Counted from the stretch's first letter, positions 13,288 through 63,554 are shown. The stretch: DNA of 64,000 nt from Candidatus Obscuribacteraceae bacterium (GCA_044229845.1 JBGASG010000011.1:1-64000); one strand, 5' to 3'. Made by a program: numbers and translations. Notes: generated by a model not told the origin, from the sequence alone.

Positions 13288-14445
13288 TTAGACAGCACTC
13301 AGAGTCAATGTGAATCGAGCACCTTGATCGATTCTGCTCTTGCACGAAAGAAACCCGCCGTGCGCACGAGCAATTTCTGAGCACAGACAGAGCCCGGCAC
13401 CGGTGACCGGAGCGTATCGCCCTGAGGCTGATGCCTGAAAGAATCGCGTAAACAAATTGGGTAAATCCTCTGGAGCGATTCCTCTTCCATCATCCGCCAC
13501 CGCAATGTCGACATGATTATTAGTGCGCACCACTGATATCGAGACACTGGACCGGGCATGCCGGAGGGCGTTTTCAGTCAGGTGTTTCAATAGTTTGCTG
13601 ATCTCGGCTCGATCGACACGTACATTGGTTCGGCTGGACTGACCATCATTGATTTTCAACTGCAGCTGGATACCCCTTTTAAGACAGCCGCTTTTCAGCT
13701 CTGAAATGGGCTGAACGAGCAAATCAGTGACCGCACAGTCCTCCAGGTTTAGGTTGGCCCGATTATTTTTGTACCTGTATAAATCGAGAAGTATAGACAA
13801 CAATCGGCTGATGTCCCGGCTGTTATCACGCATCGCCAGCAGCGTCTCTGTTTGCTGCTCGTTGAGCGAACCAAAAGCACCATCCAGAAGCAATTCGCTG
13901 ACCCGCACATTGGCCAAAACCGGAGTATTCAGGCGGTGTTGCAGAACAGACAAAAAGTCTTCCACGAGGGCTGCCAGTTTCTCCTCTGCTTCCTGACGCT
14001 CGCTAAGATCGGTGAAAGTGACCACCATCGTGCCTGCTGCATCGCCCTTGGTGGCTGGCCAAACAGACCACCGCAGCATGCGGTGGCGTCCAGTCGGATG
14101 GCGGTACAACGCCTCCCCCGAGAGAGGGTATTGGGCATCGATCAGAGTTGCGGTCAGGCTCGGCGAGGAGCCGGTGGGAATCAGGCTGGACGCGAGCAAT
14201 GCACCAAGGGAGAGCCCTTGCATAGACTCGGGTTGCACACCCAAAACAACCTCACAGGTATGATTTGCCCAGAGTACGAGACGGTTCCTATCGAGTTCAA
14301 TGACGGACTGATCCGAGACATCCAACATCCGCTCAAAGCGATGCGGTGCGTGAGACTCCTGCGGTTTAGGTTGATTGTGCACCAGCGCGGCCCTTCTTCG
14401 ATGCCAGCTCCGTCTGTTAAATTGATTATTGCGAATCGGACTCAT
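13288..14445 (-). CDS. PAS-domain histidine kinase with atypical H-box
   Basis: PAS (LWANHTC..VLG), H-box DFLSVLQHRLNTP, N-box LTENALRH, G1 DDGRGI, G2 TGAGL; ATG at 14445 with GGAG RBS (ORF track extends to 14577). Confidence 0.88.
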   Translation of the reverse strand: MSPIRNNQFNRRSWHRRRAALVHNQPKPQESHAPHRFERMLDVSDQSVIELDRNRLVLWANHTCEVVLGVQPESMQGLSLGALLASSLIPTGSSPSLTATLIDAQYPLSGEALYRHPTGRHRMLRWSVWPATKGDAAGTMVVTFTDLSERQEAEEKLAALVEDFLSVLQHRLNTPVLANVRVSELLLDGAFGSLNEQQTETLLAMRDNSRDISRLLSILLDLYRYKNNRANLNLEDCAVTDLLVQPISELKSGCLKRGIQLQLKINDGQSSRTNVRVDRAEISKLLKHLTENALRHARSSVSISVVRTNNHVDIAVADDGRGIAPEDLPNLFTRFFQASASGRYAPVTGAGLCLCSEIARAHGGFLSCKSRIDQGARFTLTLSAV

Positions 14446-14485
14446 CTCCACTTCCACCAAAGGACGTAAGTTTGCATGGTACGCA

Positions 14486-14501
14486 TGGCCCGTTAGGCTG
14501 A
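14486..14501. promoter_or_regulatory. Island palindromic box (TGGCCC-GTTA-GGCTGA)
   Basis: Partial match to TCAKCC-N4-GGMTGA, 78 bp upstream of the response regulator start, in the divergent HK/RR intergenic region. Confidence 0.55.
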
Positions 14502-14579
14502 CTTGTCGCGGCTTGTCAAACCCCGGCGCTTGCAAGTATCGGTATGCTTTAATTCTCCATGACCGTGGGAGTGTCAACT

Positions 14580-15308
14580 ATGACAACTGACAACTCGGAA
14601 GACTCCATTATCAAAGTGGTCCTGGTAGAGGATCACCTGCTTACACGCATCGGGCTGAAAACCGTCATAGAACGCACGCCTGACATTCGCGTGATTGGCG
14701 AAGCCGAAAACGGCGAAGAAGCCGTGCAAAAAGTAAAAGAGTTAAAGCCGGACGTCGTATTAATGGACGTCGGCATGCCGATCATGGACGGTATCGAGGC
14801 TTCTAAACTGATCTCCAGCAGCACCGACGGCGTCGGTATTATTATGCTCACTTCTCATGATAACGAACGCGATATTTTTGCTTCTCTAGCGGCCGGAGCC
14901 TCCGGGTATTGCTTGAAAGACGTAGAACCGGAGCGTCTTTACACCGCCATTCGCAGCGTGCAGAAAGGTGACAGTTGGCTTGATTCGGCGATAGCGGCGA
15001 AGGTGCTCAAACAACAATCTGCCGTGCCCCACCCCGCACCGGCTGCGGGCAGCCCGACCGGAGCCGGAAGCACAGGCTCGGGTCCCGACGTGACGAAAGC
15101 ACAGCAAGGATTGCCGGAGCCTCTGTCGCCCCGCGAGTTGGAAGTGCTGAACCTTCTGGTTGAAGGACTTTCCAATCAAGAGATAGCCGACAAACTGATC
15201 ATTTCGCTAGCGACCGCTAAAACGCACGTTCGCAACATTCTGAACAAGCTGGCCGTCGATGACCGCACCCAGGCGGCCGTTCACGCAATGCGGCGCGGAC
15301 TGGTCTAA
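14580..15308 (+). CDS. NarL/LiaR-family DNA-binding response regulator
   Basis: REC domain (VEDH, LMDVGMP, LTSHD, YCLKD) and LuxR HTH LSPRELEVL..GLSNQEIA..TAKTHVRNILNKL..DRTQAA. Confidence 0.96.
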   Translation: MTTDNSEDSIIKVVLVEDHLLTRIGLKTVIERTPDIRVIGEAENGEEAVQKVKELKPDVVLMDVGMPIMDGIEASKLISSSTDGVGIIMLTSHDNERDIFASLAAGASGYCLKDVEPERLYTAIRSVQKGDSWLDSAIAAKVLKQQSAVPHPAPAAGSPTGAGSTGSGPDVTKAQQGLPEPLSPRELEVLNLLVEGLSNQEIADKLIISLATAKTHVRNILNKLAVDDRTQAAVHAMRRGLV

Positions 15309-15342
15309 GCACTCCCTCAATACGTCCTTTGACACACCGAAG

Positions 15343-15358
15343 TCAGTCGTAAGGTTGA
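15343..15358. promoter_or_regulatory. Island palindromic box (TCAGTC-GTAA-GGTTGA)
   Basis: Motif match 80 bp upstream of the USP start at 15439. Confidence 0.65.
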
Positions 15359-15438
15359 TTACGGCAGGCACTGCCTGTGCGACATTGGAATGGTGACGCA
15401 TGGCGTCGGTGCAGTTCTATGCCGCAGAGGTTGATCAA

Positions 15439-15951
15439 ATGAAAGTCCTGGTTCCGGTCGAAGATAAAGAATTCGGACAACACATCGTCGATTACATCAT
15501 CACTTGCAAATGGCCGGCGGACACAGAGTTTTGTGTATTCAACGCGATAGATCCCAACCGCCTCGATCATTTTGCGGAAATCTCATTTGGCGAGTTTCTG
15601 GAAGAAGTAGCAACTCAAGAGCGAGCCGACGCGCAGAGACTAGTCGCTCTGATAGTCGGACAGTTGCGCGACTCCATGAAAAACGCCGTAATCACCACCA
15701 AGGTCGTCGAAGGACATCCCAAAGACGAGGTTCTGCGCGCCGCTAAAGAATGGCCGGCCGACCTGATTGTCATCGGCTCTCATGGCAGAAACGCCGTGCA
15801 GAGATTTCTGCTCGGAAGCGTGTCGATGGCGGTGATCGGCGCTGCACCGTGCTCAGTGCTGCTCGTCAGGGCCAAAAACACTGCCGCGCCAGTCGCCGTT
15901 GAGAAACAAGAAGCCACCGCCACCAGTGGCAAAATGCACATCATTATTTAG
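15439..15951 (+). CDS. Universal stress protein
   Basis: MKVLVPVE start; G-x2-G-x9-GS motif (IGSHGRNAVQRFLLGSVS); APCSVLLVR. Confidence 0.93.
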   Translation: MKVLVPVEDKEFGQHIVDYIITCKWPADTEFCVFNAIDPNRLDHFAEISFGEFLEEVATQERADAQRLVALIVGQLRDSMKNAVITTKVVEGHPKDEVLRAAKEWPADLIVIGSHGRNAVQRFLLGSVSMAVIGAAPCSVLLVRAKNTAAPVAVEKQEATATSGKMHIII

Positions 15952-15964
15952 AGCGAGTTGGAAA

Positions 15965-16492
15965 ATGAAGATATTAATTGCCATTGAAAGCGAAACCTGC
16001 GCCAAGTCGATTGCTCGATTTATGGCCGAGCACTATTGGGGGGCAAATACCCACTTCAATGTTCTGAAAGTCTTGCCTCCATTGCGCGCCACAGCACCAT
16101 ATAATCTCTTGCCGTCCCCTGTACTGGACGACCTCGAACAGGAAACAAGAGCGATCGCAGAATCGTTCGTAAAAAGAGTAGCCGGCGCAATTTTGGACGA
16201 ATTGCATACCGAGCACGTTGATTGGCAGTTGCGTGATGGATTTGTTGCGGAGACGATCTTGGAAGCAGCCACTGAAATGCAGGCAGATCTGATCGTGCTT
16301 GGTTGTGGGCACAGGTCTCACAAATCGGTGTTCGGGCTCTATGGCTCCGTGCTCGGCGATGTTGCTGCGCACGCACAGTGTCCGGTTCTGGTCATCCGTC
16401 CACCGGTGGAAGAAACTTGCGCAGAGCCTTGCGCGCCGGAATCTGAGAAAGCCACAATCGGCGCGCCAGAAAAGACAGCTGCCCCGACCTAA
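15965..16492 (+). CDS. Universal stress protein
   Basis: MKILIAIE; ADLIVLGCGHR..GSV; AQCPVLVIR. Confidence 0.9.
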   Translation: MKILIAIESETCAKSIARFMAEHYWGANTHFNVLKVLPPLRATAPYNLLPSPVLDDLEQETRAIAESFVKRVAGAILDELHTEHVDWQLRDGFVAETILEAATEMQADLIVLGCGHRSHKSVFGLYGSVLGDVAAHAQCPVLVIRPPVEETCAEPCAPESEKATIGAPEKTAAPT

Positions 16493-16875
16493 CCGGTAGG
16501 GGGCGTAGACTTTCCAGTGGCTTGCTTGAGTTTTAGCGACTCCAGAGTCTTAACGTAGTTATACAGCGCCTTGAGCGCTTTCGGATTCTTGCAGAGATTG
16601 TCGTAGTACGGCATGTGTCCGCTCGGGCTGTTCAAATAGTCCTTGAAGAGCGCAAAGCTATTGAGTTTTTTTGACTCTACAAGACTCTTGCTGGGTTTAA
16701 TGATGTTGCCGCCGGCAACGTGACACGACGCGCAATACTGCTGGAAAGTCTCCTGCCCGGTGGCCTTCTTGGGCTTAGCCTCTGCCGGCTGAAGTCCAGC
16801 CTGTATCGCCAAAAGGGCACAAGTCAAGGCGCTCGCGGTTACCAAAATCCGGAGCACAAAGACGGCGTTTTTCAT
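16489..16875 (-). CDS. Monohaem cytochrome c, cytochrome c6-like
   Basis: Signal peptide (AEA), GQETFQQYCASCHVAGGNII..K.L and distal MP, resembling the c6 family pattern. Confidence 0.85.
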   Translation of the reverse strand: MKNAVFVLRILVTASALTCALLAIQAGLQPAEAKPKKATGQETFQQYCASCHVAGGNIIKPSKSLVESKKLNSFALFKDYLNSPSGHMPYYDNLCKNPKALKALYNYVKTLESLKLKQATGKSTPPTG

Positions 16876-17314: not shown

Positions 17315-17375
17315 GAGAGAGCACCGGGTTTCCTGTTTCTTATCTGAGTATGCGATTTTTTCGACTCGCCTCACA

Positions 17376-17414
17376 ACAGCCCAGAGGATGATCGCAGAGC
17401 CGTCTTTAGGACGA
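17376..17414. promoter_or_regulatory. Tandem island boxes (ACAGCC-CAGA-GGATGA; GCCGTC-TTTA-GGACGA)
   Basis: Boxes at 17376-17391 and 17399-17414; the first ends 83 bp upstream of the USP start at 17475. Confidence 0.65.
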
Positions 17415-17474
17415 GGCTAAATCTTGTTTTCGAGAGCACCATTAGGAGCGAGCTCCCAGGACAGGGAAAGAGTC

Positions 17475-18455
17475 ATGAATAATGGAAAAACCGGAAATAA
17501 GCTTTTGCTGGCATTGGATGCGGCGCTGCCGGCGCGCCACGCCGCGGAGACCGTATGGCGGATAGCCGCTACCACCGGCTGCGCCGTGGAGGCGGTCTGC
17601 GTGGTAAACCCGGATGCAGTTCAAGAGTTTATAGGTGGCACCGAACCCGGTCTGGTTGCTGTCGACACGTTTCTCGACTGCCGCGAACAAATCCTAAACC
17701 AATTGCGAGCAATTGCAGACAGCACTGCGGCAGCTTTCGAGGAAGACTCACGGCAACGCGGTATGCCCAGCAAATGCTCCGTCATCGTCGGCGATCCGCT
17801 GGAGCAATTAGGCAACCTATCTGATCGCTTCGACCTGGTCGTTGTCGGACACGGCATCAGTCGGCTGCCTTCCGAACTTACTCATTCCACCTTTGCAAAG
17901 CTGTCATTAGCGGAACAGATTGCCCATAGCTCAACAGCTCCTCTTTTAGTCGTGCAACAGCCGGGAGCCAGCTGGAATGCCACCACTATCCTTTTGTCTC
18001 CAGACCATATCAACGAACTGTACATCACCGAAACGCTGGGCTTTTCACGCGCACTGGACGTCGATCCGGAAATCCTCTTACTTTGCAGTGGCGTGGGCGA
18101 AGAAGGCTGGGTCGACCTGACCCACGATTTGCGCCAGGCCAATCCCGATCTGAAGGACGTAACCATAGGCACGATCCCCTGGCAAATTGGGCCACTCTGG
18201 TCACTGCAATCATACTGGGACGTTCCGTCCCCACACCCCTTTCACCTGGAACACACAACCATTCCTGTGATTCCGACACGCAAAGTGGGCGAGCGGCGCA
18301 TCACGCTGTTCGGAAATTCAGTCACGCTTTGGGTGAGATATCTAACAGAAGCACCGGCGATGCTGTTCTTCCCGGAAGAACGCAGCGGCAGATTCTCGTG
18401 GTCACAGTTGCAGGACTCTGTAATCACAGGTCCAAAGCCGGCACTGCTTGATTGA
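17475..18455 (+). CDS. Universal stress protein (divergent two-domain type)
   Basis: KLLLALD, VGDP, FDLVVVGHG, LAEQIAHSSTAPLLVV. Confidence 0.8.
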   Translation: MNNGKTGNKLLLALDAALPARHAAETVWRIAATTGCAVEAVCVVNPDAVQEFIGGTEPGLVAVDTFLDCREQILNQLRAIADSTAAAFEEDSRQRGMPSKCSVIVGDPLEQLGNLSDRFDLVVVGHGISRLPSELTHSTFAKLSLAEQIAHSSTAPLLVVQQPGASWNATTILLSPDHINELYITETLGFSRALDVDPEILLLCSGVGEEGWVDLTHDLRQANPDLKDVTIGTIPWQIGPLWSLQSYWDVPSPHPFHLEHTTIPVIPTRKVGERRITLFGNSVTLWVRYLTEAPAMLFFPEERSGRFSWSQLQDSVITGPKPALLD

Positions 18456-18467: not shown

Positions 18468-18530
18468 TCCACCATGCGGATGACTCAAGTTTCACACCTT
18501 CAGCAGAACATTGATCAGCCCTTAGGGGGA
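18468..18530. promoter_or_regulatory. Two island boxes (TCCACC-ATGC-GGATGA; TCAGCC-CTTA-GGGGGA)
   Basis: 18468-18483 and 18515-18530; the second ends 73 bp upstream of the USP start at 18604. Confidence 0.65.
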
Positions 18531-18603
18531 CAAAATGCCGGTGCCCCGAGACGACAATAGCAATAGCAGTATCACTAACCAAACCAGACTGAGGAATAAG
18601 GCT

Positions 18604-19455
18604 ATGACGTTCGAGAAAATTTTGGTTGCGCTGGACGGGTCCAAATTCAGCCAGGTTGCCGGTGAGTATGCGTTCTGGCTGGCGTCTGAGCTGGATGCTT
18701 CACTGACCGCGCAGCATGTGGTCGATCCGCGCCTGGTTGAACTGTTTGTAGCGCCCGAGTTCGCGGAAGAGCTGGGATTCACTCAATCAGTTGAGACGAG
18801 CGAGAAAGTCTACGCGGCAATTCGCAAAGTCGGCAAAACGATCCTCAATTTGTTTGGAACCGAAGCTCTCTCACGGGCTGTCAAAACGCACTGCATGCTC
18901 GACGAAGGTAACATAGTCGAGGAGATCGTAGGGCGCAGCGCGGATTTCGATCTGGTTGTGATCGGGCACCGCGGGCGAGGCGAAAGAAAACTGCCGGCCG
19001 AACTCGTCGTCGGCTCGATCGCTGAGCGCGTTGCAGTTTCAAGCAAGAAACCGACGTTAATCGCCGTACAACCTGTCAGTGAAGTGAAACAAATCATGGT
19101 GGCTTTTGACGGCAGCGAACCGGCCCGCGGCGCCCTGCTGATGGCAGAGAATCTGGCCAAGAACCTGTCGAAGCCCCTCAAAGCAGTAGTCGTAGTCGAC
19201 AGCAAGAAACAGGTCCCGGAAGGAACAGCAGTCTGTGAACAAGGGACCGAGCTGTTACGCGAATACTGGCCGGAAGATGTGTTCTGCCTCAAAACAGGTA
19301 AGCCGGCTAAAGTGCTTCGTGAGTATGCGAAAGAAACAGACAGCCTGCTGGTCGTGGGCGCATACGGCTTCAAGACACCTGAAGAGAATGTACTCGGAAG
19401 CACTACCACTCAGTTGGTGCGTAAAGCTGAAAGCAGCGTGCTGCTCTATCGCTAG
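18604..19455 (+). CDS. Tandem-domain universal stress protein
   Basis: FEKILVALDGS…DLVVIGHRG…VGSIAERV; second domain IMVAFDGSE…VVGAYG…LGSTT. Confidence 0.93.
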   Translation: MTFEKILVALDGSKFSQVAGEYAFWLASELDASLTAQHVVDPRLVELFVAPEFAEELGFTQSVETSEKVYAAIRKVGKTILNLFGTEALSRAVKTHCMLDEGNIVEEIVGRSADFDLVVIGHRGRGERKLPAELVVGSIAERVAVSSKKPTLIAVQPVSEVKQIMVAFDGSEPARGALLMAENLAKNLSKPLKAVVVVDSKKQVPEGTAVCEQGTELLREYWPEDVFCLKTGKPAKVLREYAKETDSLLVVGAYGFKTPEENVLGSTTTQLVRKAESSVLLYR

Positions 19456-19470: not shown

Positions 19471-20310
19471 TCACTTGTGCTTAGCTGGGGCTGGTCTATT
19501 CGGCAGAGTCAGCAAAAACGCTGTGATCTTATCGATGTCAGCTTGCGGCAGGTTGAACTTCGGCATCATAGACGGGCGCTCCATGTGATCGCCTCGAGTC
19601 CGGACAATGTTAACCTCCGGATTCTTCACCTGCGAGGCGATGTAGGCAGCGCTGCGCCGTTCACCAATGCCGTCCAGGGACGGTCCGAACCAGCCTCCGA
19701 TGCCGGCGATCGAATGGCAGGCGGCGCAACCGTGATCGGAGAAAATCTTTGCTCCTTGCCTCGACTTCGTGGACGGCGGCTGGGGCTTGAAGCCTGGCTT
19801 TGCCGGCGGAGTTTCGTGAGACGCGATCTTATGGGCCCGAATTTCAAAACCTTCTTCCGGCGCAGGTAAAGTCAGCAAATACTTGACGACAGGCAAGGCT
19901 TTTGCTTCTGGCAGCTTAGGATGCGCCATCAATTCAGGCATGCCGTACAAGCGATCAAACTCCTTCTGACGACCAGGATCTGCAGAAAGACGAGTGAGCA
20001 GAAAGTGTTCGTCGCGCACACCACCGACAGCATCGAGGGGCGGTCCCAGACAACCTCCTTTACCTTCGATCGAATGACAATTGGCACAAGTCAGCTGGGC
20101 GTAGATTTGTTTGCCTTTTTCGCTATCAGCTGAAGCAGCGGCCGGCGTATAAGTAATTTTCTTGACCAGAACGTCGTGCTCAATTGCATCGTCTTCAGGA
20201 CCGGCAAGCGACGAACGCAAACTGCTGGCAACCAGCGACAGACAAAGCGCTCCCACCACAACCAGACCAGAGACAATGGGAGTCTCAATGGGCGACAACC
20301 GCACCTTCAT
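19471..20310 (-). CDS. Membrane-anchored dihaem cytochrome c
   Basis: N-terminal TM; CANCH and CAACH, each followed by GP.LD; start ATG 20310 or 20331. Confidence 0.88.
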   Translation of the reverse strand: MKVRLSPIETPIVSGLVVVGALCLSLVASSLRSSLAGPEDDAIEHDVLVKKITYTPAAASADSEKGKQIYAQLTCANCHSIEGKGGCLGPPLDAVGGVRDEHFLLTRLSADPGRQKEFDRLYGMPELMAHPKLPEAKALPVVKYLLTLPAPEEGFEIRAHKIASHETPPAKPGFKPQPPSTKSRQGAKIFSDHGCAACHSIAGIGGWFGPSLDGIGERRSAAYIASQVKNPEVNIVRTRGDHMERPSMMPKFNLPQADIDKITAFLLTLPNRPAPAKHK

Positions 20311-22720
20311 GCTTGGCATCCGCATTGGCAATAGCTCCTTCCATTTCGCTTACCATGAGCAGCGTCTTCAGAAATGCGTCTTCGTTGAGCGAAATGGAGT
20401 CGATACCTTGCTCGATCAAAAACCGCACCACTTCAGGATAATCGCTGGGCGCCTGTCCGCAAATGCCTATTTTGCGCTGGGCAGCCTTGGCTCCGGCAAT
20501 CGCCTTCGACATCGCAGATTTTACAGCAGCATCTCGCTCGTCGAACATCGAAGCCAAAAGTTCTGAATCTCGATCGACTCCAAGTACCAACTGTGTCAGG
20601 TCATTGGACCCAATGGAAAATCCATCGAATACTTCAGCAAAAGCGTCAACCGACAAAACATTGGCAGGCAACTCGCACATCACGTAGATCTCAAGCCCAT
20701 CTCGCCCTTGCACCAATCCGTTCGCCGCCAACTCCTCAATCACACGCGCACCCTCCCGCGGGGTTCGGCAAAATGGCACCATCAACTTGATGTTTTTCAA
20801 CCCCATTTGGGTTCGTACCCTGTCGATAGCCAGACACTCCAGCCAAAACCCATCTTTGTAGCGCTCATCGTAATAGCGGCAAGCGCCTCTAAAACCGATC
20901 ATCGGGTTTTCTTCATGCGGTTCAAAGTATTGACCGCCCAGCAGACTGGCATATTCGTTGGTTTTAAAATCCGACAATCGCACAATCACAGGGCGCGGAT
21001 AGAATGCAGCCGCGATGGTACCGATACCCTCGGCCAGTTTCGTGACGAAATAGTCGGCCGGCGTCGCATACGTCTGCGTCAATCGATCAATTTCTCTTCG
21101 CGTCTCCCGATCGACGATACGGTCTTTATGCACGAGCGCCATCGGATGCGCCTTCACTTCATCGGTGATGATAAACTCTTCGCGCGCCAGTCCGACTCCG
21201 GCGCTCGGCAATAGAGAAGACTTAAAAGCACTCTCCGGATTCCCGATGTTGAGCATCAGATCTGTTCGTATGCGTGGCAGTTCATCGATCACCAGCTCTC
21301 GACGCTTGTAGGGTACCGCGCCGGAATAAACATTTCCCTGCGAGCCCTCCGCACAAGAAACTGTAACCAGGCTCGGTTTCTCAAAAACGCGTGTAGCATT
21401 GCCGGTACCGACAACGCAAGGGACTTTCAGCTCGCGACTGATAATCGCCGCATGGCAGGTTCTGCCACCACGGTTGGTGATGATCGCCGCTGCCTTCTTC
21501 ATGATCGGTTCCCAATCGGGGTCGGTCATATCAGCAACGAGGACATCACCTTCTTCGAACTTATGCAGTTCTTTCGGTGAGTTAATCACACGCGCGACAC
21601 CGGTGCCGACGGCATCGCCGATCGCCCGTCCGGAGAGTAGTGGCTGTCCGGGCTTTTGCAATTCGTAGGTGACTATGCGGTTGTACGTCGCTTGTTTATG
21701 GATCGTTTCAGGGCGCGCCTGGACTATGAATAATTCTCCGGTCAGCCCATCTTTAGCCCACTCGATATCCATCGGCGTCCAGTGCCCGTGACGCTGAGAG
21801 TAGTGCTCCTCGATCTTGACGCCCCACTTCGCAAGTTGAATTGCCTCTTTGTCCGAAAGACTCAAGATTTCGCGCTCGTGCGGCAGGACATCTAAATTTT
21901 GCGTTCTCTCGGCGCTGTGCTCACGGAGAATCATTTTGCATTGCTTGGCTCCCACCTTGCGACGTATCACAGGATCGGGCGCCGTGCCGAGCGTCGGTTT
22001 GAAAACAATGATCTCATCGGGATCGACCCGCCCTTGCACGATGTTTTCTCCCATCCCCCAGGCGGACGTAATCAGAACCACATTCTTGTGTCCGCTTTCC
22101 GGGTCGAGGGTAAACATCACTCCCGAACAGGCAAGGTCGGAGCGCACCATTTGCTGGACGCCTATCGAAAGCCGCACCGCCATATGGTCAAAACCCTTGT
22201 CTATTCGATAAGAGATCGCCCGGTCTGTGAAAAGGGAAGCAAAGCAGTCAAGACAGGCATCCAACAAGTCGAGCACGCCTCTGACATTGATAAACGACTC
22301 TTGTTGTCCGGCGAAAGATGCGTCCGGCAGGTCTTCGGCTGTAGCACTGGAGCGGACCACCACCGCCACATTCTTGCCCAGTTTCTCCTCGAGATCTATG
22401 TATGCGCGCGCTATCTCGTCCTTCACTTCAGCGGGGATACCTGTTCGGCGCATCAACTCGCGAGCCTTTCGACCAGCCTCGGCAATCGAGCGCACATCGC
22501 CCGGCTTGATGTCGCTCAGGATGCCGCGCAATTTGTCTTCGGCGCCTTCCGAACTGAGAAGCAGCGAATATGCATCAGCTGTAATCACAAATCCAGTCGG
22601 GACGCTGATGCCGTCTTCAGTCAGTGACCCTAACATCTCGCCCAGCGAAGCATTTTTTCCGCCTACTAAATCTATATCGGAAAGATTGACTGCCTCGAGG
22701 TTTCGCACGAATAGATACAT
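20285..22720 (-). CDS. ppsA: Phosphoenolpyruvate synthase
   Basis: VGGKNASLGEM, VRSSATAEDLPDASFAGQQE, GGRTCHAAIISRE, EENPMIGFRGA, FSIGSNDLTQL. Confidence 0.97.
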   Translation of the reverse strand: MYLFVRNLEAVNLSDIDLVGGKNASLGEMLGSLTEDGISVPTGFVITADAYSLLLSSEGAEDKLRGILSDIKPGDVRSIAEAGRKARELMRRTGIPAEVKDEIARAYIDLEEKLGKNVAVVVRSSATAEDLPDASFAGQQESFINVRGVLDLLDACLDCFASLFTDRAISYRIDKGFDHMAVRLSIGVQQMVRSDLACSGVMFTLDPESGHKNVVLITSAWGMGENIVQGRVDPDEIIVFKPTLGTAPDPVIRRKVGAKQCKMILREHSAERTQNLDVLPHEREILSLSDKEAIQLAKWGVKIEEHYSQRHGHWTPMDIEWAKDGLTGELFIVQARPETIHKQATYNRIVTYELQKPGQPLLSGRAIGDAVGTGVARVINSPKELHKFEEGDVLVADMTDPDWEPIMKKAAAIITNRGGRTCHAAIISRELKVPCVVGTGNATRVFEKPSLVTVSCAEGSQGNVYSGAVPYKRRELVIDELPRIRTDLMLNIGNPESAFKSSLLPSAGVGLAREEFIITDEVKAHPMALVHKDRIVDRETRREIDRLTQTYATPADYFVTKLAEGIGTIAAAFYPRPVIVRLSDFKTNEYASLLGGQYFEPHEENPMIGFRGACRYYDERYKDGFWLECLAIDRVRTQMGLKNIKLMVPFCRTPREGARVIEELAANGLVQGRDGLEIYVMCELPANVLSVDAFAEVFDGFSIGSNDLTQLVLGVDRDSELLASMFDERDAAVKSAMSKAIAGAKAAQRKIGICGQAPSDYPEVVRFLIEQGIDSISLNEDAFLKTLLMVSEMEGAIANADAKHEGAVVAH

Positions 22721-22802
22721 GAGTTAGCTCCTTGCGCCCTGATTACCATATTGTCGGCGGTGCCGCGCTCATTTCCATTGACTTCAAGACTGATACAGCC
22801 CC

Positions 22803-22818
22803 TCCTCCTTTTGGTTGA
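22803..22818. promoter_or_regulatory. Island palindromic box (TCCTCC-TTTT-GGTTGA)
   Basis: Between divergent ppsA (82 bp away) and the hydrogenase operon (54 bp away). Confidence 0.6.
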
Positions 22819-22872
22819 TCCTGCCAGTCGGCAATTCTGTCAAAATCATGGTCGGCTGACCCAGAGGGGCAA

Positions 22873-54380: not shown

Positions 54381-54535
54381 GAGTTGTCTTTACAAGGTCG
54401 AGCTTCGGTCGTTGCGGAAGTGGAAGTGGAATCAGTCTCAGGTATCAGTGTATGCATCAATCTATCCGAACAAAAGACACAAGACATCCGCACTGAGGAT
54501 GATTACCGTCTGGTAACTAGCTCAAAGACTCCCGC

Positions 54536-54551
54536 TCAGCCTTTAGGATGA
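54536..54551. promoter_or_regulatory. Island palindromic box TCAGCC-TTTA-GGATGA
   Basis: Full consensus match upstream of the second histidine kinase; weaker copy at 54487-54502. Confidence 0.72.
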
Positions 54552-54667
54552 CTGCAATTCTAGATTCACTCCTGGGATTGAAGACATGATGTTCCCTCGC
54601 GCTGATAATCCAAGTATAGCTACAAGGAGTTCCGTCTCTCTTAACTTCAGTCTTCAGTCAGACTCTC

Positions 54668-56446: not shown

Positions 56447-57056
56447 CGATCACTCGATGTTCCGCGCCGGACTGCGCCGGATAATCGAAGACTGCCGACC
56501 TGGTGTTTGTATCGTAGAAGCCGCTTCGTGTGATGAGTGCTTGCAGATTGCCCGTGCCGGCAAGTTGGATTTGATAATTCTGGATGTGTCCATGCATTCC
56601 CAAAACAGTCTGGGCATCTTGCCTGAAATCAAGAATTGTCAGCCTCATACACCGATCATGATGCTCAGTATGCATGCCGACACTGAGTTTGTTGTGCAGG
56701 CACTGCGAGCCGGAGCGTCGGGCTATTTGACAAAGGAGCACACTGCAGAGGAGCTGATTCGAGCAATCGACACTGCCCTCTCCGGGCAGCGCTACGTCAG
56801 TTCATCGCTGGCAGAAAACCTGGTTGATCTTATCGCTGGCGGCACATCGGACAAGCCGCACGAAGCCCTATCGGTACGCGAGCGAGAAGTATTCTTGTTA
56901 ATCGCAGCCGGAAAATCACTGTCCGAAATTGCCAGGCTTCTCTCGTTGAGCACCAAGACGGTAAGCACATACAGAACCAGAATCTTGGAAAAAATGGCGC
57001 TCGGTTCCAATGCCGAGTTGATGCGATATGCACTACGCAACAAACTGGTTGACTGA
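56427..57056 (+). CDS. NarL/UvrY-type response regulator
   Basis: MRILLADDH, LDVSM, LSMH, HTH LSVREREV..KTVSTYRTRILEKM. Confidence 0.95.
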   Translation: MRILLADDHSMFRAGLRRIIEDCRPGVCIVEAASCDECLQIARAGKLDLIILDVSMHSQNSLGILPEIKNCQPHTPIMMLSMHADTEFVVQALRAGASGYLTKEHTAEELIRAIDTALSGQRYVSSSLAENLVDLIAGGTSDKPHEALSVREREVFLLIAAGKSLSEIARLLSLSTKTVSTYRTRILEKMALGSNAELMRYALRNKLVD

Positions 57057-58763: not shown

Positions 58764-59495
58764 ATGGTCAAGGATTCACTTTTCGACACCACAAGTCTAA
58801 ACGAGGAAATATTCAGCGACCGGCAGCACGCCGGCAAGTACATCGGCAGCCGCCTGCGATCTATGTATTCCGCCGCCGATGACGCTCTACCAATGGTAGT
58901 AGCGATCGGTAGGGGCGGCATACCTGTCGCTTACGAAACATCCAGAGTGCTGGGAGTGCCGTATTTCAGTGCATTAGGTTGCCGAAAGATCCCCTGCAAT
59001 ACAAACAGAATGGTTCCTATTGGGGTGGCTACCGCCGAAGGCGTCGCGGTAGTTAACGACCAAATGGTGCGAATCACCGCTCTTCCCGAACCGGTGCTCG
59101 ATGCTAAGAAAGCACAGGCAATCAAAGACGCCAAGTTTGATCAAACTGCGTTCGATGCATCCTCTCATTTAGGATGTGCAGACTTCACTGCTCGGGACGT
59201 TGTGTTGGTTGATGATGGTATCTCTACCGGAATGACTGCTCTGTCCGCTATCCGGTCGATGAAACAGCGAGCGGTACGCAGTATAACGCTGGCTGCGCCT
59301 GTAGTGTCCAACGATGTCCTGCCACAGCTTGAGCGTGAATGCGACGCGGTTGTCTATTCTTTCAAGATGAACCATATCTTGTCGCTCGAGGACTATTATA
59401 ACGATTTCCCCCGCGTAACACTGGCTGAGGCGACGAGACTGCTATCTACCCAGTTGATGTTCGAGCAATCGTCGAAGCTTGCCTCTGCCGTGTAG
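58764..59495 (+). CDS. Phosphoribosyltransferase-domain protein (Rv0571c/Rv2030c N-terminal type)
   Basis: FSDRQHAG, GRGGIPVA, RKI, VLVDDGISTGMT, LAAPV, YY.DF.V. Confidence 0.9.
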   Translation: MVKDSLFDTTSLNEEIFSDRQHAGKYIGSRLRSMYSAADDALPMVVAIGRGGIPVAYETSRVLGVPYFSALGCRKIPCNTNRMVPIGVATAEGVAVVNDQMVRITALPEPVLDAKKAQAIKDAKFDQTAFDASSHLGCADFTARDVVLVDDGISTGMTALSAIRSMKQRAVRSITLAAPVVSNDVLPQLERECDAVVYSFKMNHILSLEDYYNDFPRVTLAEATRLLSTQLMFEQSSKLASAV

Positions 59496-59524
59496 AGCGC
59501 TTCGCCGCCGGTGCTGGGCAAAGA

Positions 59525-59540
59525 TCATCCGAAGGGATGA
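59525..59540. promoter_or_regulatory. Perfect island box TCATCC-GAAG-GGATGA
   Basis: Extends to GATCATCC…GGATGATC; 79 bp upstream of the ORF at 59620. Confidence 0.8.
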
Positions 59541-59619
59541 TCGCGATCCGTCTTCAGCCTGATCGTAAGCAACTGGATTTGCGTCAGAATCAAGGAAGAT
59601 CGTAGCGAGACTGACTTCA

Positions 59620-60055: not shown

Positions 60056-61060
60056 TCAATCGATTTTTCCGTAGGAATGCAGCCCGCCAAAGCCCAGGAC
60101 GTTGAAGCCCAGATAGGTAAGAAGTGTCAACAAAAGCCCGAGGACTGCAACGACGGCAACGGCATCGTTTGATCTGCCTGACCTGCCTGACCTGGTGCGC
60201 AAGTGCATGTAAATTGCATAAGTGAGCCAGGTCACCAGCGACATGGATTCCTTTGGGTCCCAGGACCAGTATGTGCCCCAGGCATGGTTAGCCCAGAGGG
60301 CACCGCTGATGATGCCAAAGGTCAGGAGCGGAAAGCCCAGCGTAATACAACGATGTGAAATTTCATCATACATGCGCGCCTTTGGCAAGTCGGGTCCGAC
60401 AATCTGCCGCTCTTGCTGCAAAAAGAAGGCGGCCAGTATCAGCAAGAATATGCTGCCGACCCAAAAGATTACATGCAGCAGATTTTGGGCGAGCGCATGA
60501 CTCAGCCCTAGGGCAATTGAAAGAAACGAAACCAGGATAGCTCCTGCCAGTGCCGCGGTTGTTTTGCGACGAAACTGCGTCCACAGATAAGCTACGGCGC
60601 TTGCGCCACCACACAGAAACAGAGCATAAGAGATCATCAATGGCGGTACATGGACAACGCGCCAGTTACTTACCAGGGCAGGCATCAACGGCATGACTGT
60701 GCGTTGGGATTCCGGCAGCCAGCTGCAGAAGAGAAAGATGGAACATACTGCCAGGGCTGTTGCAACGCCGAAACGAGCGTCGCGGTAACGCCAGGCAATA
60801 TAAAGGTAAACTCCGGTGAGCGACCAAGCAAATAGCACAAGGCTTTCATAGAGATTGGCTGTCGGAAAGCGTGCCGCCTGAAGTCCCCTAAACACCACAG
60901 CTCCAGTGATACCGATAAATGTGATGGTAAAAGCGATCAGAGCCAGTCTGCTACACCATTCCTGCTTGCTTCGAAAGGCCTTTCCCATAATGAATAACCA
61001 CAAGGAAACCAGTCCGGCCAATCCTGCGACATTTGTCAGTGCTGCATCGGTTGCTATCAT
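60056..61060 (-). CDS. ccsA: Cytochrome c biogenesis System II haem lyase CcsA/ResC
   Basis: FP..NLYES, PAL.SNW..HV, GALWANHAWGTYWSWDPKE (WWD domain), GLHSYG. Confidence 0.95.
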   Translation of the reverse strand: MIATDAALTNVAGLAGLVSLWLFIMGKAFRSKQEWCSRLALIAFTITFIGITGAVVFRGLQAARFPTANLYESLVLFAWSLTGVYLYIAWRYRDARFGVATALAVCSIFLFCSWLPESQRTVMPLMPALVSNWRVVHVPPLMISYALFLCGGASAVAYLWTQFRRKTTAALAGAILVSFLSIALGLSHALAQNLLHVIFWVGSIFLLILAAFFLQQERQIVGPDLPKARMYDEISHRCITLGFPLLTFGIISGALWANHAWGTYWSWDPKESMSLVTWLTYAIYMHLRTRSGRSGRSNDAVAVVAVLGLLLTLLTYLGFNVLGFGGLHSYGKID

Positions 61061-62400
61061 GAGTTGTTCGTCCTCACTGAGGTGGTGGGCAACAATTCGA
61101 AATTCGAAGTACCTGACGCAGGTTTCAAATGCGGAGCTACGACTTGAGCAATGGACTCAAGCTCATTTTCAGCCAGAGATTGGAAAGGTGTTGGTTCCCA
61201 ACCCAGATAAAGAGAAAGACGGCTGTCATCGCCGGTTTCCAGGCAGGCGAATATGCGGCAACGAGGTACTGATACCAGCGCTGCACCCATGAGTAAAAAG
61301 ACGAAGGATGCATGCACAAGCGGCAACCCCGGATCGTATTTGTACTGCAAAGTGGTGACGGCAACTGGGGCTTCGTAAGCAATTTTCAACGCATCAAGAG
61401 TGACAGTTTGTTTTAGTTTCAGGTCCGCAAGGAAGTTTGCCGACGGCTGCTCATCCAGTACTCCGTATATCTGCAAAGACGCGCCGTCGGAAGCAACCAC
61501 AACAACCAGAGAGAGGTCTTTCGAGAGTGAAACCACTCCGGCAAGTGAATTGCCAATTCTCTCAAGCGGCACCTGCGCAAGTTGTTTCCCGAACTTGAGG
61601 GTGACTGCTTTGAGCTGCCAGTCAGCCTGGTAGTAAGTCACACTGTTTACTGTCAACGGATTGTTGACAGAAGTTATGCCTTGCGATCGAAGATGACCGT
61701 GTTTGTCCAGAATCTCCAGTTCTGTTTTCCATTGCTTGGGCTCTCCGGACGGATGATTTTCTCGCCTGGTGTCTTTGATCACCAGCCAGTCTTGCTCAGC
61801 CTTTCCCAGCAGTGGTTGTTGCGCATGAATCGCCGGCACAGACAACCTGGAGCCGACGGTGCCAGAGACACAACCTGAATAACCGCAAGCCGCCGAGAAA
61901 GCTACTCCTCCCAGCAAGAGGAACAGTCCCAGATGTGTGCAGGGGCCGGCCAGGTAACCCATTCGTCCCTTCTCGAAAATGAGCCGGCTTCCCGCGTCGG
62001 TAACTAAGAAGCGGCGGGCTCTCATGAATTTCACCAGTTCCAGTCGACTTTCGACGCTGTCACTTACATCAATCGAGATTGAGTGGGACATAGACGCGAT
62101 TTCTCCTGCGCTCTTACCTCTGCCCGGAATCAGCCTGTGAGTTACGCGAGAACGCTGCCGTGAGACGCTGCAAGCAACGAGATTGAGAAACAGCATACCA
62201 GTGACAAGCAAGAAGAGGCTGGAGCTGAATACTCTATTCAACCCGAGCATCGCTATAATTCTGGCTATAGCGTCGCCGAAGCGGGCACAAAGCTCTTCCT
62301 CATTGATGCTCTGTGGGATGTAGGCACCAGCGAAAACAAGCAGGCACAAAGCCACCATCAAGAGAATTGTCAATTTAAGGGAGGATAGTGAACTCAACAT
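61057..62400 (-). CDS. resB: Cytochrome c biogenesis System II protein Ccs1/ResB
   Basis: LSSLKL..L, IPQ, F.S..F, NL.ACS, H.G, SVNNPL, YQADW, YDPG; start 62400 or 62451. Confidence 0.88.
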   Translation of the reverse strand: MLSSLSSLKLTILLMVALCLLVFAGAYIPQSINEEELCARFGDAIARIIAMLGLNRVFSSSLFLLVTGMLFLNLVACSVSRQRSRVTHRLIPGRGKSAGEIASMSHSISIDVSDSVESRLELVKFMRARRFLVTDAGSRLIFEKGRMGYLAGPCTHLGLFLLLGGVAFSAACGYSGCVSGTVGSRLSVPAIHAQQPLLGKAEQDWLVIKDTRRENHPSGEPKQWKTELEILDKHGHLRSQGITSVNNPLTVNSVTYYQADWQLKAVTLKFGKQLAQVPLERIGNSLAGVVSLSKDLSLVVVVASDGASLQIYGVLDEQPSANFLADLKLKQTVTLDALKIAYEAPVAVTTLQYKYDPGLPLVHASFVFLLMGAALVSVPRCRIFACLETGDDSRLSLYLGWEPTPFQSLAENELESIAQVVAPHLKPASGTSNFELLPTTSVRTNNS

Positions 62401-62428
62401 AGCTTCTCGCACAGCAGCTGTTCCGTGT

Positions 62429-63478
62429 TCAAGAGCGGCCGGTCGCGGCAAAACGGCGCACTACATATGGTGTCCAACGCCGGTCGAGGATTTCAGCGAT
62501 GATTTTGTGAGCCCCGGCGCATAAAGCCGCACGTTCCGCCAGATTCGACTCGACTACTTGAGCCAGATCGTCGACCGTGTATAGTTTGGTCTCTGAGAAA
62601 CCGCCGATTGCGGGATCTACATTGCGCGGCACCGACAGATCTATCACCACACCCGGCACAGTTGCCTGTTTCTCAAGCTCTGCCCGAGTCAGCACGAACT
62701 CCGGCGCCGCCGTGGTCACGATAACAACGTCGGCTCCAGCTGATAACTCATGCCTCTCTTCGTACGAATGACAGAGAGAGAGCCGCCCCTCCACATTCAG
62801 CTCCTGCATACCCAGAAGACCCTCGCCGCTTCGATTGACGACCTGAATGGATGGACAGTCGCGCGAGGAAAGCAGCTGCTTCGCGCACATCTGGGCGGCT
62901 CTTCCTGCTCCCACCAGCAAGAGAGTGCGACTCTTCAGCCCGCCGAAATTCTGGCGTGCAATTTCGATGGCAGCAGCGCCTGTAGAAACAGCTCCGCTGC
63001 TAATTTTGGTTTCTGTGCGCACACGCTTGCCACAGTGCAGAGCTAAATCAAATAAACGTCTCAATACAGGTCCGGCGCAGTCAGCATCGAGAGCCGCCTG
63101 GTAAGCATCCTTTACCTGCGCCAGAATTTGCCCTTCGCCCACCACCATGCTCTCCAGACCACTGGCAACCCTGCACAGATGAGCTACAGCCTGCTCATCC
63201 GTCTTCACCATACTCGGTGCAAGATCGTGATGATCAGATACTGCCTGCACTGCCTGGAAGAACGATTTGACCTGTGAAGTTCCTTCCTCGCGTCCCGTTG
63301 TGACTGCATAAACCTCAAAGCGATTGCATGTCGCGATGATTGCTGATTCATTTATCGCCGGCAAAGACTGGAGATGCTTGAGAGCTTGATGCAGGCAGGA
63401 AGGCGGGATGGTCAGCCGCTCGCGTACGGCGACCGGCTGTGATTTGTAATCGAGTCCGCAAGCGATCAGGTGAGGCAC
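62429..63478 (-). CDS. hemA: Glutamyl-tRNA reductase (short form)
   Basis: PV.VRE, ATCNRFE, SGLESMVVGEGQILAQVK, GAG, DLSVPRNVDP; 349 aa. Confidence 0.93.
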   Translation of the reverse strand: MPHLIACGLDYKSQPVAVRERLTIPPSCLHQALKHLQSLPAINESAIIATCNRFEVYAVTTGREEGTSQVKSFFQAVQAVSDHHDLAPSMVKTDEQAVAHLCRVASGLESMVVGEGQILAQVKDAYQAALDADCAGPVLRRLFDLALHCGKRVRTETKISSGAVSTGAAAIEIARQNFGGLKSRTLLLVGAGRAAQMCAKQLLSSRDCPSIQVVNRSGEGLLGMQELNVEGRLSLCHSYEERHELSAGADVVIVTTAAPEFVLTRAELEKQATVPGVVIDLSVPRNVDPAIGGFSETKLYTVDDLAQVVESNLAERAALCAGAHKIIAEILDRRWTPYVVRRFAATGRS

Positions 63479-63538
63479 TTTTATCCACCAACCTAAGACA
63501 TTCAGCTTTAAAATAGCAATAGTTTCCAGACGGTAACC

Positions 63539-63554
63539 ACAACCGGAAGGCTGA
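63539..63554. promoter_or_regulatory. Island box (ACAACC-GGAA-GGCTGA)
   Basis: 60 bp upstream of the hemA start. Confidence 0.6.

Follow-up and report, generated by a model that had tools for sequence, protein, structure and literature searches.

An Obscuribacterales genome, from a non-photosynthetic relative of cyanobacteria, holds its genes for low-oxygen survival and anaerobic respiration in one very large cluster, and these genes share a DNA switch that is probably set by a haem-containing globin kinase (GHK) and its partner regulator (RR1). We consider it fairly probable that the whole represents a low-oxygen master switch of the Obscuribacterales, most of whose targets happen to lie on one contig here. 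The order is uncultured, and its lineage is central to how the sister groups of cyanobacteria came to handle oxygen. With a sensor, a regulator, and a binding site (the box) defined, one can predict the oxygen response from sequence and test it using two soluble proteins.

The window, by which we mean the entire 64,000-nucleotide stretch analyzed, contains the following features, identified by a Pfam scan of 81 open reading frames, an NCBIfam search, and de novo and matrix-based searches for the box (box positions carry no strand).

13288..14577, minus: HK1, globin-less PAS-HisKA-HATPase, GHK paralogue (Pfam)
14580..15308, plus: RR1, NarL/LiaR-type response regulator, proposed box binder (Pfam, alignment)
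15342..15359: box, 17.7 bits, upstream of USP-USP operon (de novo, matrix scan)
15400..16492, plus: two USP genes (Pfam)
16489..16875, minus: monohaem cytochrome c (Pfam)
17375..17415: two boxes, 16.8 and 11.4 bits, divergent promoter (matrix scan)
17475..18455, plus: divergent USP (Pfam E 0.04; 28% to USP neighbour, E 5e-16)
18514..18531: box, 16.5 bits (matrix scan)
18604..19455, plus: tandem-domain USP (Pfam)
19471..22720, minus: ppsA (PEP synthase) and dihaem cytochrome c (Pfam, NCBIfam)
22802..22819: box, 15.6 bits, between ppsA and hydrogenase operon (matrix scan)
22873..28788, plus: hycI, hypA, hypB, hypC, four-subunit group 3b [NiFe]-hydrogenase (Pfam, NCBIfam)
28745..29251, minus: USP (Pfam)
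29371..29388: near-perfect box, 23.0 bits, upstream of rhodanese-USP-globin kinase (de novo, matrix scan)
29467..30485, plus: rhodanese-domain protein and USP (Pfam)
30548..32284, plus: GHK, protoglobin-PAS-HisKA-HATPase (Pfam)
32753..32770: box, 14.8 bits, upstream of hypF (matrix scan)
32854..37660, plus: hypF, hypC, hypD, hypE (Pfam)
39161..41887, minus: type II P-type ATPase (Pfam, NCBIfam)
41980..41997: weak box, 11.6 bits, between ATPase and USP (matrix score)
42076..43568, plus: USP and CDF cation transporter (Pfam)
43924..43941: box, 14.2 bits, upstream of desaturase (matrix scan)
43995..45974, plus: fatty-acid desaturase, PaaA-like di-iron protein, 2x[4Fe-4S] ferredoxin (Pfam, NCBIfam)
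44773..44790: perfect box, 24.8 bits, outside training set, upstream of PaaA-like/ferredoxin (matrix scan)
45964..50171, minus: USP, hemerythrin, resolvase-like, trihaem cytochrome c, acetyl-CoA hydrolase/transferase (Pfam)
50276..52820, minus: alternative sigma-70 factor, MBL-rhodanese persulfide dioxygenase-like protein (Pfam, NCBIfam)
52884..52901: box, 14.0 bits (matrix scan)
54486..54552: two boxes, 15.4 and 20.1 bits, upstream of HK3-RR2 pair (matrix scan)
54668..57056, plus: dCache-HAMP-HisKA_3 kinase HK3 and NarL-type RR2 (Pfam)
58764..59495, plus: PRTase-domain protein (Pfam)
59524..59563: two boxes, 21.2 and 14.8 bits (matrix scan)
60056..63478, minus: hemA, ccsB, ccsA (Pfam)
63538..63555: box, 13.9 bits, upstream of hemA (matrix scan)
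Past the window to contig end, C20:143 kb: continuation of the regulon (box scan, NCBIfam)

Much of an initial annotation made from the window alone withstood this analysis: the gene inventory was confirmed, the proposed cyanobacterial-relative lineage agreed with the taxonomic placement, and the count of eight USPs was reached with seven Pfam-positive genes plus the divergent one. The hydrogenase had its best NCBIfam matches to ShyA/B/D and HydG-type models, all under equivalog cut-offs, and in the PDB it best matched alpha subunits of the cytosolic/sulfhydrogenase kind, with which both of its CxxC motifs align. The alpha/beta/gamma/delta sulfhydrogenase-type subunits and Ni-binding Cys motifs that characterize group 3b were present.

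The palindrome common to the cluster, ATCAtCC-n4-GGaTGAT, emerged de novo from intergenic DNA. A degenerate pattern matched 23 times compared with 10.6 +/- 2.9 in shuffled sequence (none of 100 shuffles reached 23), a count that is biased because the pattern was derived from the same window; the unbiased test is a held-out scan of C20 64-143 kb and the rest of the genome. Run at a threshold of at least 16 bits, a matrix trained only on the window scored 7 sites inside its training region; C20 64-143 kb yielded 11, and a further 2 came from the other 5.02 Mb. Since the 79 kb that follow the window, unseen in training, contain 11 such sites, the cluster spans at least 130 kb, and position 63554, offered earlier as its right boundary, is only the edge of the window. 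Sites of at least 14 bits stood at the heads of 12 of 26 putative transcription units in the window's island (training) and 16 of 43 held-out units, compared with 0 of 8 in window positions 1-13.2 kb and 5 of 2477 elsewhere in the genome. Against the model, no strong box was found at 27 of the 43 held-out heads, qNor included (6.8 bits); in its favour, the cbb3-type/bc operon had none. Both the palindrome and the idea of one shared regulon gained support from held-out enrichment. The box was also correctly described as LiaR-like: the LiaR skeleton, T(X)4C(X)4G(X)4A, fits 125 of 148 sites. Among 160 oriented sites, a -10 element peaked 29-31 nt from the box centre (52 versus 9.7 expected), which is activator geometry. 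Neither of two other motifs was enriched, a DosR core pattern giving 2 matches at up to 3 mismatches versus 3.96 expected and an FNR-type pattern giving 36 versus 27.6 +/- 5.9 (10 of 100 shuffles reached 36). An N-terminal Cys cluster is missing from the one clear member of the Crp family, and an FNR-type protein was not found.

Extension beyond the window added narGHJI, qNor, hcp, nrdDG, Hsp20s, and a bd-like oxidase operon. The island also holds ric, two NnrS-like genes, an Rrf2 regulator, SulP, FtsH, and a BCAM0308-family gene above its NCBIfam cut-off; many members of the narGHJI, qNor, hcp, ric, NnrS-like, and Rrf2 set are boxed. By its gene content (narGHJI, qNor, nrdDG, hcp, bd-like oxidase), the extended cluster looks like a regulon for anaerobiosis and NO in general, not for dormancy alone.

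GHK is the only protoglobin in the assembly. Its globin residues Tyr53, Gln79, and His106 and the THDLKTP motif, which includes the H-box H316-D-L-K-T, did not vary in any of the 21 relatives that were correctly extracted, a count that leaves out the G067 kinase, extracted in the wrong frame. Tyr53 and His106 align with HemAT Tyr70 and His123, and the GHK globin matched that of AfGcHK (E 1.4e-7). Pfam found no GAF domain in GHK, whose kinase core is HisKA (PF00512), and its PAS domain had no significant relative among solved structures. An AlphaFold model (6-sequence alignment, pLDDT 71.6, pTM 0.38) links three domains through long helices. Structure searches gave nothing more specific than generic PAS-kinases (Foldseek) and generic PAS-HisKA clusters (ESM Atlas), neither of which bears on polarity. 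RR1 had LiaR/VraR as its best solved relative (161 bits; DevR, 110 bits). It retains LiaR Lys177/Thr178 and has Ala in place of LiaR Lys174; in LiaR, Lys177 is in contact with the consensus C/G pair (PMC4482077).

GHK and RR1 lie 15 kb apart in the source genome, but the pairing first proposed for the globin kinase and the regulator at 14580 is supported by relatives: a protoglobin-PAS-HisKA kinase and a LiaR-like regulator stand head-to-head in 61 of 63 genomes, as they do in all 22 of the regions fetched. Protoglobin was present in 70 of 77 genomes of family f1 and 2 of 2 of family f2. In the conservation check named beforehand, the pair, box, and gene set turned out to be order-wide and clustering and order to be variable: relatives' clusters range from a few genes to >60 kb, with gene order shuffled and boxed operons elsewhere on the chromosome. 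Across 107 genomes there were 449 box sites versus 33 for a reversed control, and 19 family-f1 regions held 120 sites versus ~8 for permuted matrices, with 6 of the 19 not above the permuted maximum. The box remains upstream of orthologous operons when these are unlinked from the pair, as in the closed genome G004, where ~1.9 and 2.6 Mb separate boxed nar and bd-like/bc operons from the kinase. The pair also occurs in family f2, yet the strict box pattern matched in 0 of 3 genomes. Pair-less genomes proved unusable as a natural control: the island of same-genus G072 ends at a contig end, and the other negatives are incomplete. Sites of at least 11 bits occurred in 1 of 22 kinase-regulator gaps, the rate of random windows (4.4%), and we rejected autoregulation of the core pair on this ground; the 11.1-bit site at 14485 may be chance.

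Outside the order, 10 globin loci from families f4, f9, and f11 had no head-to-head pair and 2 sites in total, and two cyanobacterial RR1 homologues (~46%, similar helix) had no USP cluster and sites of only 12-14 bits. In 13 loci of sister family f8 with an RR1-like helix there were 35 sites versus 2.6 permuted, and in 8 loci whose regulator helix differs there were none; the box tracks the regulator recognition helix across families. A quick tree does not unite the f1 and f8 regulators as one clade. A FixL-like PAS with an aligned His was found in 8 of 12 f8 partner kinases, and this His was absent in the other 4, though some have boxes. Family f8 thus appears to pair the same box with a FixL-type haem-PAS kinase, and FixL is oxygen-off (PMC8697598).

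HK1 is indeed a GHK paralogue (33% identity over 259 aa), with its true start probably near 14445, but the role assigned to it as a DosS/DosT-like partner has to be given up. Its H-box, H-R-L-N-T, has Arg at H+1 and no catalytic acidic residue, and it belongs to a derived globin-less clade present in 15 of 107 genomes. Such paralogues keep the docking helix and phosphatase Thr, lack the kinase Asp, and often have a box; HK1 is probably kinase-dead and phosphatase-competent, that is, phosphatase-only. Another paralogue lies at C20:82344. Both pseudo-kinases of genome G000 have weak or no boxes (11.1 and 9.5 bits). Analyses of pseudo-kinase loci leave out 6 of 18 loci, which were not parsed, and the pseudo-kinase and regulator trees are both quick trees. 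The HK3-RR2 pair, overlooked by the initial annotation within its span, is a boxed target and includes the window's only HisKA_3 kinase; it is not conserved within relatives' clusters and was rejected as master pair for that reason.

In the model we favour, cytoplasmic GHK would bind haem through its protoglobin domain, report O2, and signal to RR1, its conserved head-to-head partner in the genomes. Without O2, GHK would phosphorylate RR1; with O2 it would be off, or act as a phosphatase through its D-x-x-T motif, opposite to AfGcHK and NmpU. Phosphorylated RR1 dimers would bind boxes centred at about -42, where promoter geometry fits class II activation of sigma-70 promoters. The genes switched on would provide for the fermentative disposal of H2 (group 3b hydrogenase, PpsA, acetyl-CoA hydrolase/transferase), for respiration of nitrate and NO together with NO repair (narGHJI, narK, qNor, hcp, ric, NnrS-like), and for making dNTPs anaerobically. 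They would also encode a bd-like oxidase/bc module, supply haem and cytochrome c, and include a set for persistence (USP/Hsp20/FtsH). Paralogues of the HK1 type, which lack the globin, probably take phosphate off RR1 and would thereby provide feedback or additional inputs.

Promoter geometry and target content together predict that GHK is off with O2. In AfGcHK the Fe(II)-O2 form is active and the deoxy Fe(II) form is not (PMC8697598), and NmpU is predicted to be active with O2 (PMC11841059). Both characterized globin kinases being active with O2, the polarity required here is unprecedented for this type of sensor kinase, and the same regulon and pair could instead work with GHK on in O2 and the inversion elsewhere, either because unphosphorylated RR1 activates or through an unlinked inverter like NmpS, which performs that task in NmpRSTU (PMC11841059). 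The distal Tyr/proximal His layout common to GHK and AfGcHK-type globins fits such a scheme. We nevertheless judge it unlikely: a tblastn search with G000 island proteins, which misses unlike genes, found no third conserved signalling gene by the pair in 22 regions, LiaR-type regulators show better DNA binding when phosphomimetic (PMC4482077), Vibrio RsbR is a known deoxy-on globin sensor (PMC4976288), and f8 kinases carry a FixL-like PAS. An oxygen-off globin kinase or a hidden inverter would be interesting either way, and a sharp biochemical test could tell them apart. The main signal might also be NO (or CO) at the globin haem, making this primarily a nitrosative-stress/denitrification regulon, as the many boxed genes of the nar, NO, and Rrf2 set would allow. 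This is quite unlikely given the pair's commonest neighbours, namely USPs (17 of 19 regions), acetyl-CoA hydrolase (10), hydrogenase subunits (8-10), and ppsA (8), with nar and qNor near it in 1 region each. The nrdD product and the hydrogenase are, moreover, anaerobic enzymes sensitive to O2.

That another factor (RR2, the island's Rrf2 or sigma factor, the Crp protein) binds the box and RR1 is a mere neighbour would explain the boxless kinase-regulator promoter and suit the usual pairing of HisKA_3 kinases with NarL regulators, as in HK3-RR2. We regard it as very unlikely, since HK3, rrf2, and the sigma factors are missing from nearly all relatives' clusters, the box matches the LiaR skeleton while the RR2 helix differs, the box covaries with RR1-type helices across families, extra RR1 copies lie directly 3' of a box in G017, G086, and G094, and the FNR-type pattern is not enriched. 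Hardly credible, and already disfavoured, is a recently acquired genomic island of genes that are not co-regulated, with a coincidental likeness to DosR. GC content of 0.53 versus ~0.555 in most contigs and distal IS66, IS256, and group II intron genes would suit it, but the pair and gene set occur throughout the order, rearranged but with the box conserved, some of the island is present in a same-genus genome (with one block at 84-94% identity), and ARAGORN found no tRNA on the contig.

The organism occurs in sludge, digester, and drinking-water metagenomes, so transcriptomes of cycled bioreactors could test the regulon. In four sludge/bioreactor metatranscriptomes, contigs span 15.1-23.8 kb and cover 4.5-14.4 kb only in patches; the runs were picked using 15.1-23.8 kb, the contigs carry no level, start, strand, or oxygen label, and we do not count them as support.

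DosRST kinases have a HisKA_3 core and a GAF-haem sensor, whereas GHK is protoglobin-PAS-HisKA and HK1 is likewise HisKA. The haem kinase and NarL-family activator of DosS/DosT-DosR, and of Streptomyces OsdKR, are nevertheless shared. DosR targets include alpha-crystallin, ribonucleotide reductase, a cation ATPase, and several USPs (PMC3721108), to which M. smegmatis adds a group 3b hydrogenase and PEP synthase (10.1101/2023.09.11.557286). USPs, alpha-crystallin, P-ATPase, group 3b hydrogenase, and PEP synthase all occur here, with control suggested by their boxes, and the functional convergence on DosR proposed earlier is borne out. RR1 is nearer to LiaR/VraR than to DevR, the box differs from the DosR site and is also unlike the OsdR consensus (PMC5069765), and one active kinase with predicted pseudo-kinases serves a core pair that is not autoregulated.

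The Burkholderia lxa locus (PMC3721108) comprises 50 genes over 50.7 kb with a shared motif at 17 intergenic points, order variable among relatives, six USPs, alpha-crystallin, a sulphate transporter, a cation ATPase, and a Zn protease. The likeness extends to a large cluster with multiple USPs, Hsp20s, SulP, ATPase, FtsH, the BCAM0308 family, and a shared motif; the lxa motif is Anr/Fnr-like (TGA-N6-TCA), unlike the LiaR-like box, and the cluster here also has hydrogenase and anaerobic respiration genes. The first description of a single island is thus true of this genome, with a larger extent, variable clustering in relatives, and the lxa precedent to set beside it. Myxococcus NmpRSTU, in which a protoglobin kinase heads a hypoxia regulon with USP, P-type ATPase, haem synthesis, and hemerythrin genes, uses an oxygen-on kinase, the inverter NmpS, and an NtrC/sigma-54 regulator at GCGCA-N5-TGCGC (PMC11841059). 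GHK resembles AfGcHK and NmpU in joining a HisKA kinase to a sensor globin that has a distal Tyr and a proximal His; it differs in its PAS before HisKA and direct pairing with a putative NarL-type sigma-70 class II activator. No hybrid inverter like NmpS was found in the pair neighbourhoods, the partner is NarL-type and not an NtrC-like sigma-54 regulator, and the box is followed by a sigma-70 -10 element. RR1 shares with LiaR/VraR the recognition-helix Lys/Thr and the site, whereas the kinase is cytoplasmic HisKA rather than the intramembrane HisKA_3 kinase of LiaFSR/VraTSR, LiaF and LiaS were not found, and the targets are not envelope-stress genes.

The initial interpretation therefore stands for lineage, regulon, box, pairing, and convergence, and is revised for the role of HK1, for the emphasis on dormancy, and for the island's size and precedent. 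Its claim of novelty needs narrowing too: a protoglobin-headed hypoxia regulon is known from Myxococcus, with another regulator class and an inverter kinase, and what appears undescribed is the combination of globin kinase, partner regulator, and shared box. A bolder proposal, which we hold tentatively as somewhat likelier to fail than to stand, is that one LiaR-like activator and one box form the FNR/DosR equivalent of non-photosynthetic cyanobacterial relatives, with two unrelated haem sensors, a protoglobin (Obscuribacterales) and a FixL-type PAS (f8), on the same kinase core, the first oxygen-off globin-coupled kinase, and tuning by box-induced phosphatase-only pseudo-kinases. The system works like DosRST, lxa, and NmpRSTU and is a member of none, and as another independent convergence, beside DosR and lxa, on a USP/Hsp20/ATPase/hydrogenase/PpsA set, it opens the way to comparison across phyla.

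The regulon probably governed by a globin-containing kinase and a NarL-type regulator is real and order-wide, and its clustering is extreme in this genome. The contig that carries it, C20, spans 143,479 nt of a 5.16-Mb assembly that is 88% complete; the window covers its initial 64 kb, with the signaling genes arranged as follows.

13288-14577, reverse strand: HK1, globin-less paralogue of GHK
14580-15308, forward strand: RR1, NarL/LiaR-type regulator
30548-32284, forward strand: GHK, protoglobin-PAS-HisKA-HATPase kinase
54668-57056: HK3/RR2, second two-component pair

Palindromic motif discovery in intergenic DNA recovered the box ATCAtCC-n4-GGaTGAT. A matrix trained on 18 window sites and then applied genome-wide placed 7 sites of at least 16 bits in 12.8-64 kb, 11 in the 64-143 kb of C20 held out from training, and 2 across the remaining 5.02 Mb. 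Sites of at least 14 bits stood at the heads of putative transcription units, drawn from our own gene calls, in 12 of 26 cases within the window's part of the island (the boxed cluster), 16 of 43 in the held-out part, 0 of 8 on the island's left flank, and 5 of 2,477 elsewhere; 27 of the 43 held-out heads, that of qNor included, had no strong site. As the island extends to the contig end, its size is at least 130 kb. A strong, terminator-like inverted repeat (12940-13010) lies at its left edge, and the phosphoketolase gene immediately to the left (5702-8140) lacks a box; the homologue in the closed genome G004 sits within a boxed cluster.

Relatives were surveyed across 107 genomes of the order, which are related to one another, so that all counts come from nonindependent samples. 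Protoglobins occur in 70 of 77 genomes of the window's family (f1) and both genomes of family f2 of the same order (at least 85% complete); the largest other family has them in 1 of 231. RR1 matches at E<=1e-75 were found in at least 64 of 107 genomes, a lower bound because 26 candidates were scored per genome and the gene was present in fetched DNA of the "negatives" G037, G073, and G080. Kinase and RR1 lie head to head within 700 nt in 61 of the 63 genomes having both genes listed, the exceptions being the window's own genome and another whose kinase is fragmented; the arrangement was consistent in all 22 fetched regions from the order. Within 40 kb of this pair, 19 f1 regions contained USPs (17 regions), hydrogenase subunits (8-10), acetyl-CoA hydrolase (10), hypF (9), ppsA (8), ftsH (8), and a P-ATPase (7). 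These regions held 120 box sites versus about 8 with permuted matrices, and 13 of 19 exceeded the permuted maximum. A strict 18-mer pattern gave 449 sites in the 107 genomes against 33 for a reversed control, with zero in three f2 genomes.

Gene content and synteny in related MAGs, the comparison proposed in the initial annotation, support one shared regulon: pair, neighbors, and box recur order-wide in shuffled gene order. Packaging as one island holds for this genome, where clustering is near complete, but in relatives the cluster may comprise just a few genes (G073, G053, G063) or exceed 60 kb (G043, G080). In G004, a nar cluster about 1.9 Mb and a CydA-like operon about 2.6 Mb from the pair both carry 21-bit boxes, and in G043 a CydA-like operon and ric are likewise boxed though distant. 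The conserved unit is therefore the regulon, with near-complete clustering its extreme. G043 also has a 21-bit box 5' of HPPD-like and homogentisate-dioxygenase-like genes (L125:3958-6410), O2-consuming enzymes that are odd in a low-oxygen regulon.

Among 148 sites of at least 14 bits, 124 have a gene start within 300 nt and 8 lie deep inside called genes. On 160 gene-oriented sides, -10-like hexamers, scored with an approximate matrix, peaked 29-31 nt from the box center (52 versus 9.7 expected; best three-position window elsewhere, 20), which puts the box near -42, the position of a class II activator. The closest solved relative of RR1 is LiaR/VraR (161 bits; DevR, 110 bits). RR1 retains LiaR Lys177, which touches the guanine bases in the C/G pair of the consensus (PMC4482077), and Thr178, with Ala at the Lys174 position, and the T(X)4C(X)4G(X)4A skeleton fits 125 of the 148 sites. 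Families f3 to f11 belong to the same class. In f8, regulators with an RR1-like helix came with 35 sites versus 2.6 permuted (13 loci; neighbors USP, Hsp20, nar, and qNor); eight loci in f3, f9, and f11 encoding a different helix had zero. Counting against RR1 as the binder, the core kinase-regulator promoter has no box, and in a quick tree the regulators of f1 and f8 did not come out as a single clade. The box and the RR1-kinase pairing are well supported, and RR1 is the putative binder. In some genomes RR1 has a second copy, separate from the kinase and directly downstream of a 21- to 23-bit box (L113:9426-10148, L114:8425-9147, L112:7249-7953), which suggests an inducible positive-feedback copy.

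GHK is the sole protoglobin of the assembly, with a globin domain that matches those of Geobacter GCS, Vibrio RsbR, HemAT, and AfGcHK. Full-length relatives in named genome records number five (six loci in all), at 61-63% identity, every one from Candidatus Obscuribacterales. All 21 correctly extracted relatives (G067 excluded) share Tyr53, Gln79, His106, and the H-D-x-x-T box without exception. Kinase activity requires an acidic H+1 residue and phosphatase activity an H+4 Thr/Asn (PMC3510030); because both positions are kept, GHK is predicted to have both activities. About five tandem copies of an acidic 7-residue unit close the protein (32130-32284), beyond the region aligned with relatives, and are possibly a local expansion.

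AfGcHK is on with O2 and off when deoxy (PMC8697598), and NmpU is predicted to share this polarity, inversion requiring NmpS (PMC11841059). Since an anaerobic-gene activator is here paired directly with the kinase, the simplest reading is that GHK would be deoxy-ON, a prediction helped by a Vibrio globin stressosome that is activated in the deoxy state (PMC4976288) and by f8, in which a FixL-like PAS with the aligned His is present in 8 of 12 partner kinases and absent from the other 4. The overall mechanism is a prediction from sequence, sharply testable. At the f8 loci (L157-L173, e.g., L130:325-2220), the RR1-like regulator is co-oriented behind a globin-less kinase, mostly with FixL-like heme-PAS, and the same box is often immediately 5' of the regulator, with nar, qNor, USP, and Hsp20 genes nearby. 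In f4, stand-alone protoglobins of about 200 aa (L105, L106; 11 of 23 with a hit) occur with an RR1-like pair elsewhere whose kinase lacks the heme-PAS His, a possible split-sensor arrangement.

Both paralogous kinases named initially are present, but HK1 is best read as a phosphatase-only modulator, a predicted role for its type. In HK1, as in a paralogue at C20:82344, the H+1 residue is Arg, and such altered kinases occur in 15 of 107 genomes. In a quick tree, the 12 parsed loci of 18 group as a single clade inside GHK-like cores (SH-aLRT 100), with Arg or Lys at H+1 and Thr kept; the first N-box Asn is His in the 11 shown. Eight of the 12 have a box of at least 12 bits near their start, this genome's two being without.

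Pfam (81 ORFs) and NCBIfam confirmed each gene listed initially, including eight USPs, the eighth divergent; that inventory had left out HK3/RR2, a sigma-70 factor, a hemerythrin, and an acetyl-CoA hydrolase/transferase. A resolvase-N-like protein (47130-47690) may be a regulon member rather than a mobile-element remnant, as it recurs near the pair in G037, G054, G071, and G080. A lone PaaA-like di-iron protein and a ferredoxin (44878-45974) follow the genome's strongest box; the G004 homologue is likewise boxed and adjoins the kinase.

The held-out part encodes ric, nrdDG, narGHJI with cytochrome b/Rieske, two narK, qNor, hcp, and two NnrS-like genes; hemY, an AhbD-like radical SAM protein, and a CydA-like/cytochrome b/Rieske operon; and three Hsp20s, further USPs, SulP, FtsH, HtrA, encapsulin, and a BCAM0308-family gene. 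The Family 1 encapsulin shell gene (L007:14157-15402; C20:77157-78402) lies behind a 21-bit box, with an NnrS-like gene and a 139-aa gene without clear family, a possible cargo, 5' of it. Tandem tyrosine phenol-lyase and tryptophanase-like genes (L008:1796-5265; C20:84796-88265) have homologues near the pair in G067. At C20:119076-125544 (L009-L010), the two parts of a split hcp are separated by IS66 and a fragment of a group II intron reverse transcriptase; a second intron reverse transcriptase lies 3' of qNor, and IS256 at about 134.4 kb.

Literature searches, including Obscuribacterales with globin, found no description of this system in the text available, and supplementary MAG annotation tables could still list its genes. 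Melainabacterial respiration is treated in PMC6349859 and PMC5877343, in whose available text no regulator was found. DosR controls Hyh and a PEP synthase (10.1101/2023.09.11.557286), the lxa locus and its overlap with DosR are described in PMC3721108, and the OsdR consensus is given in PMC5069765. The initial DosR-like label fits the content, but a defining DosRST feature is absent. With a defining feature of each system missing, the regulon functions like DosRST and lxa in its content and has a sensor like that of NmpRSTU.
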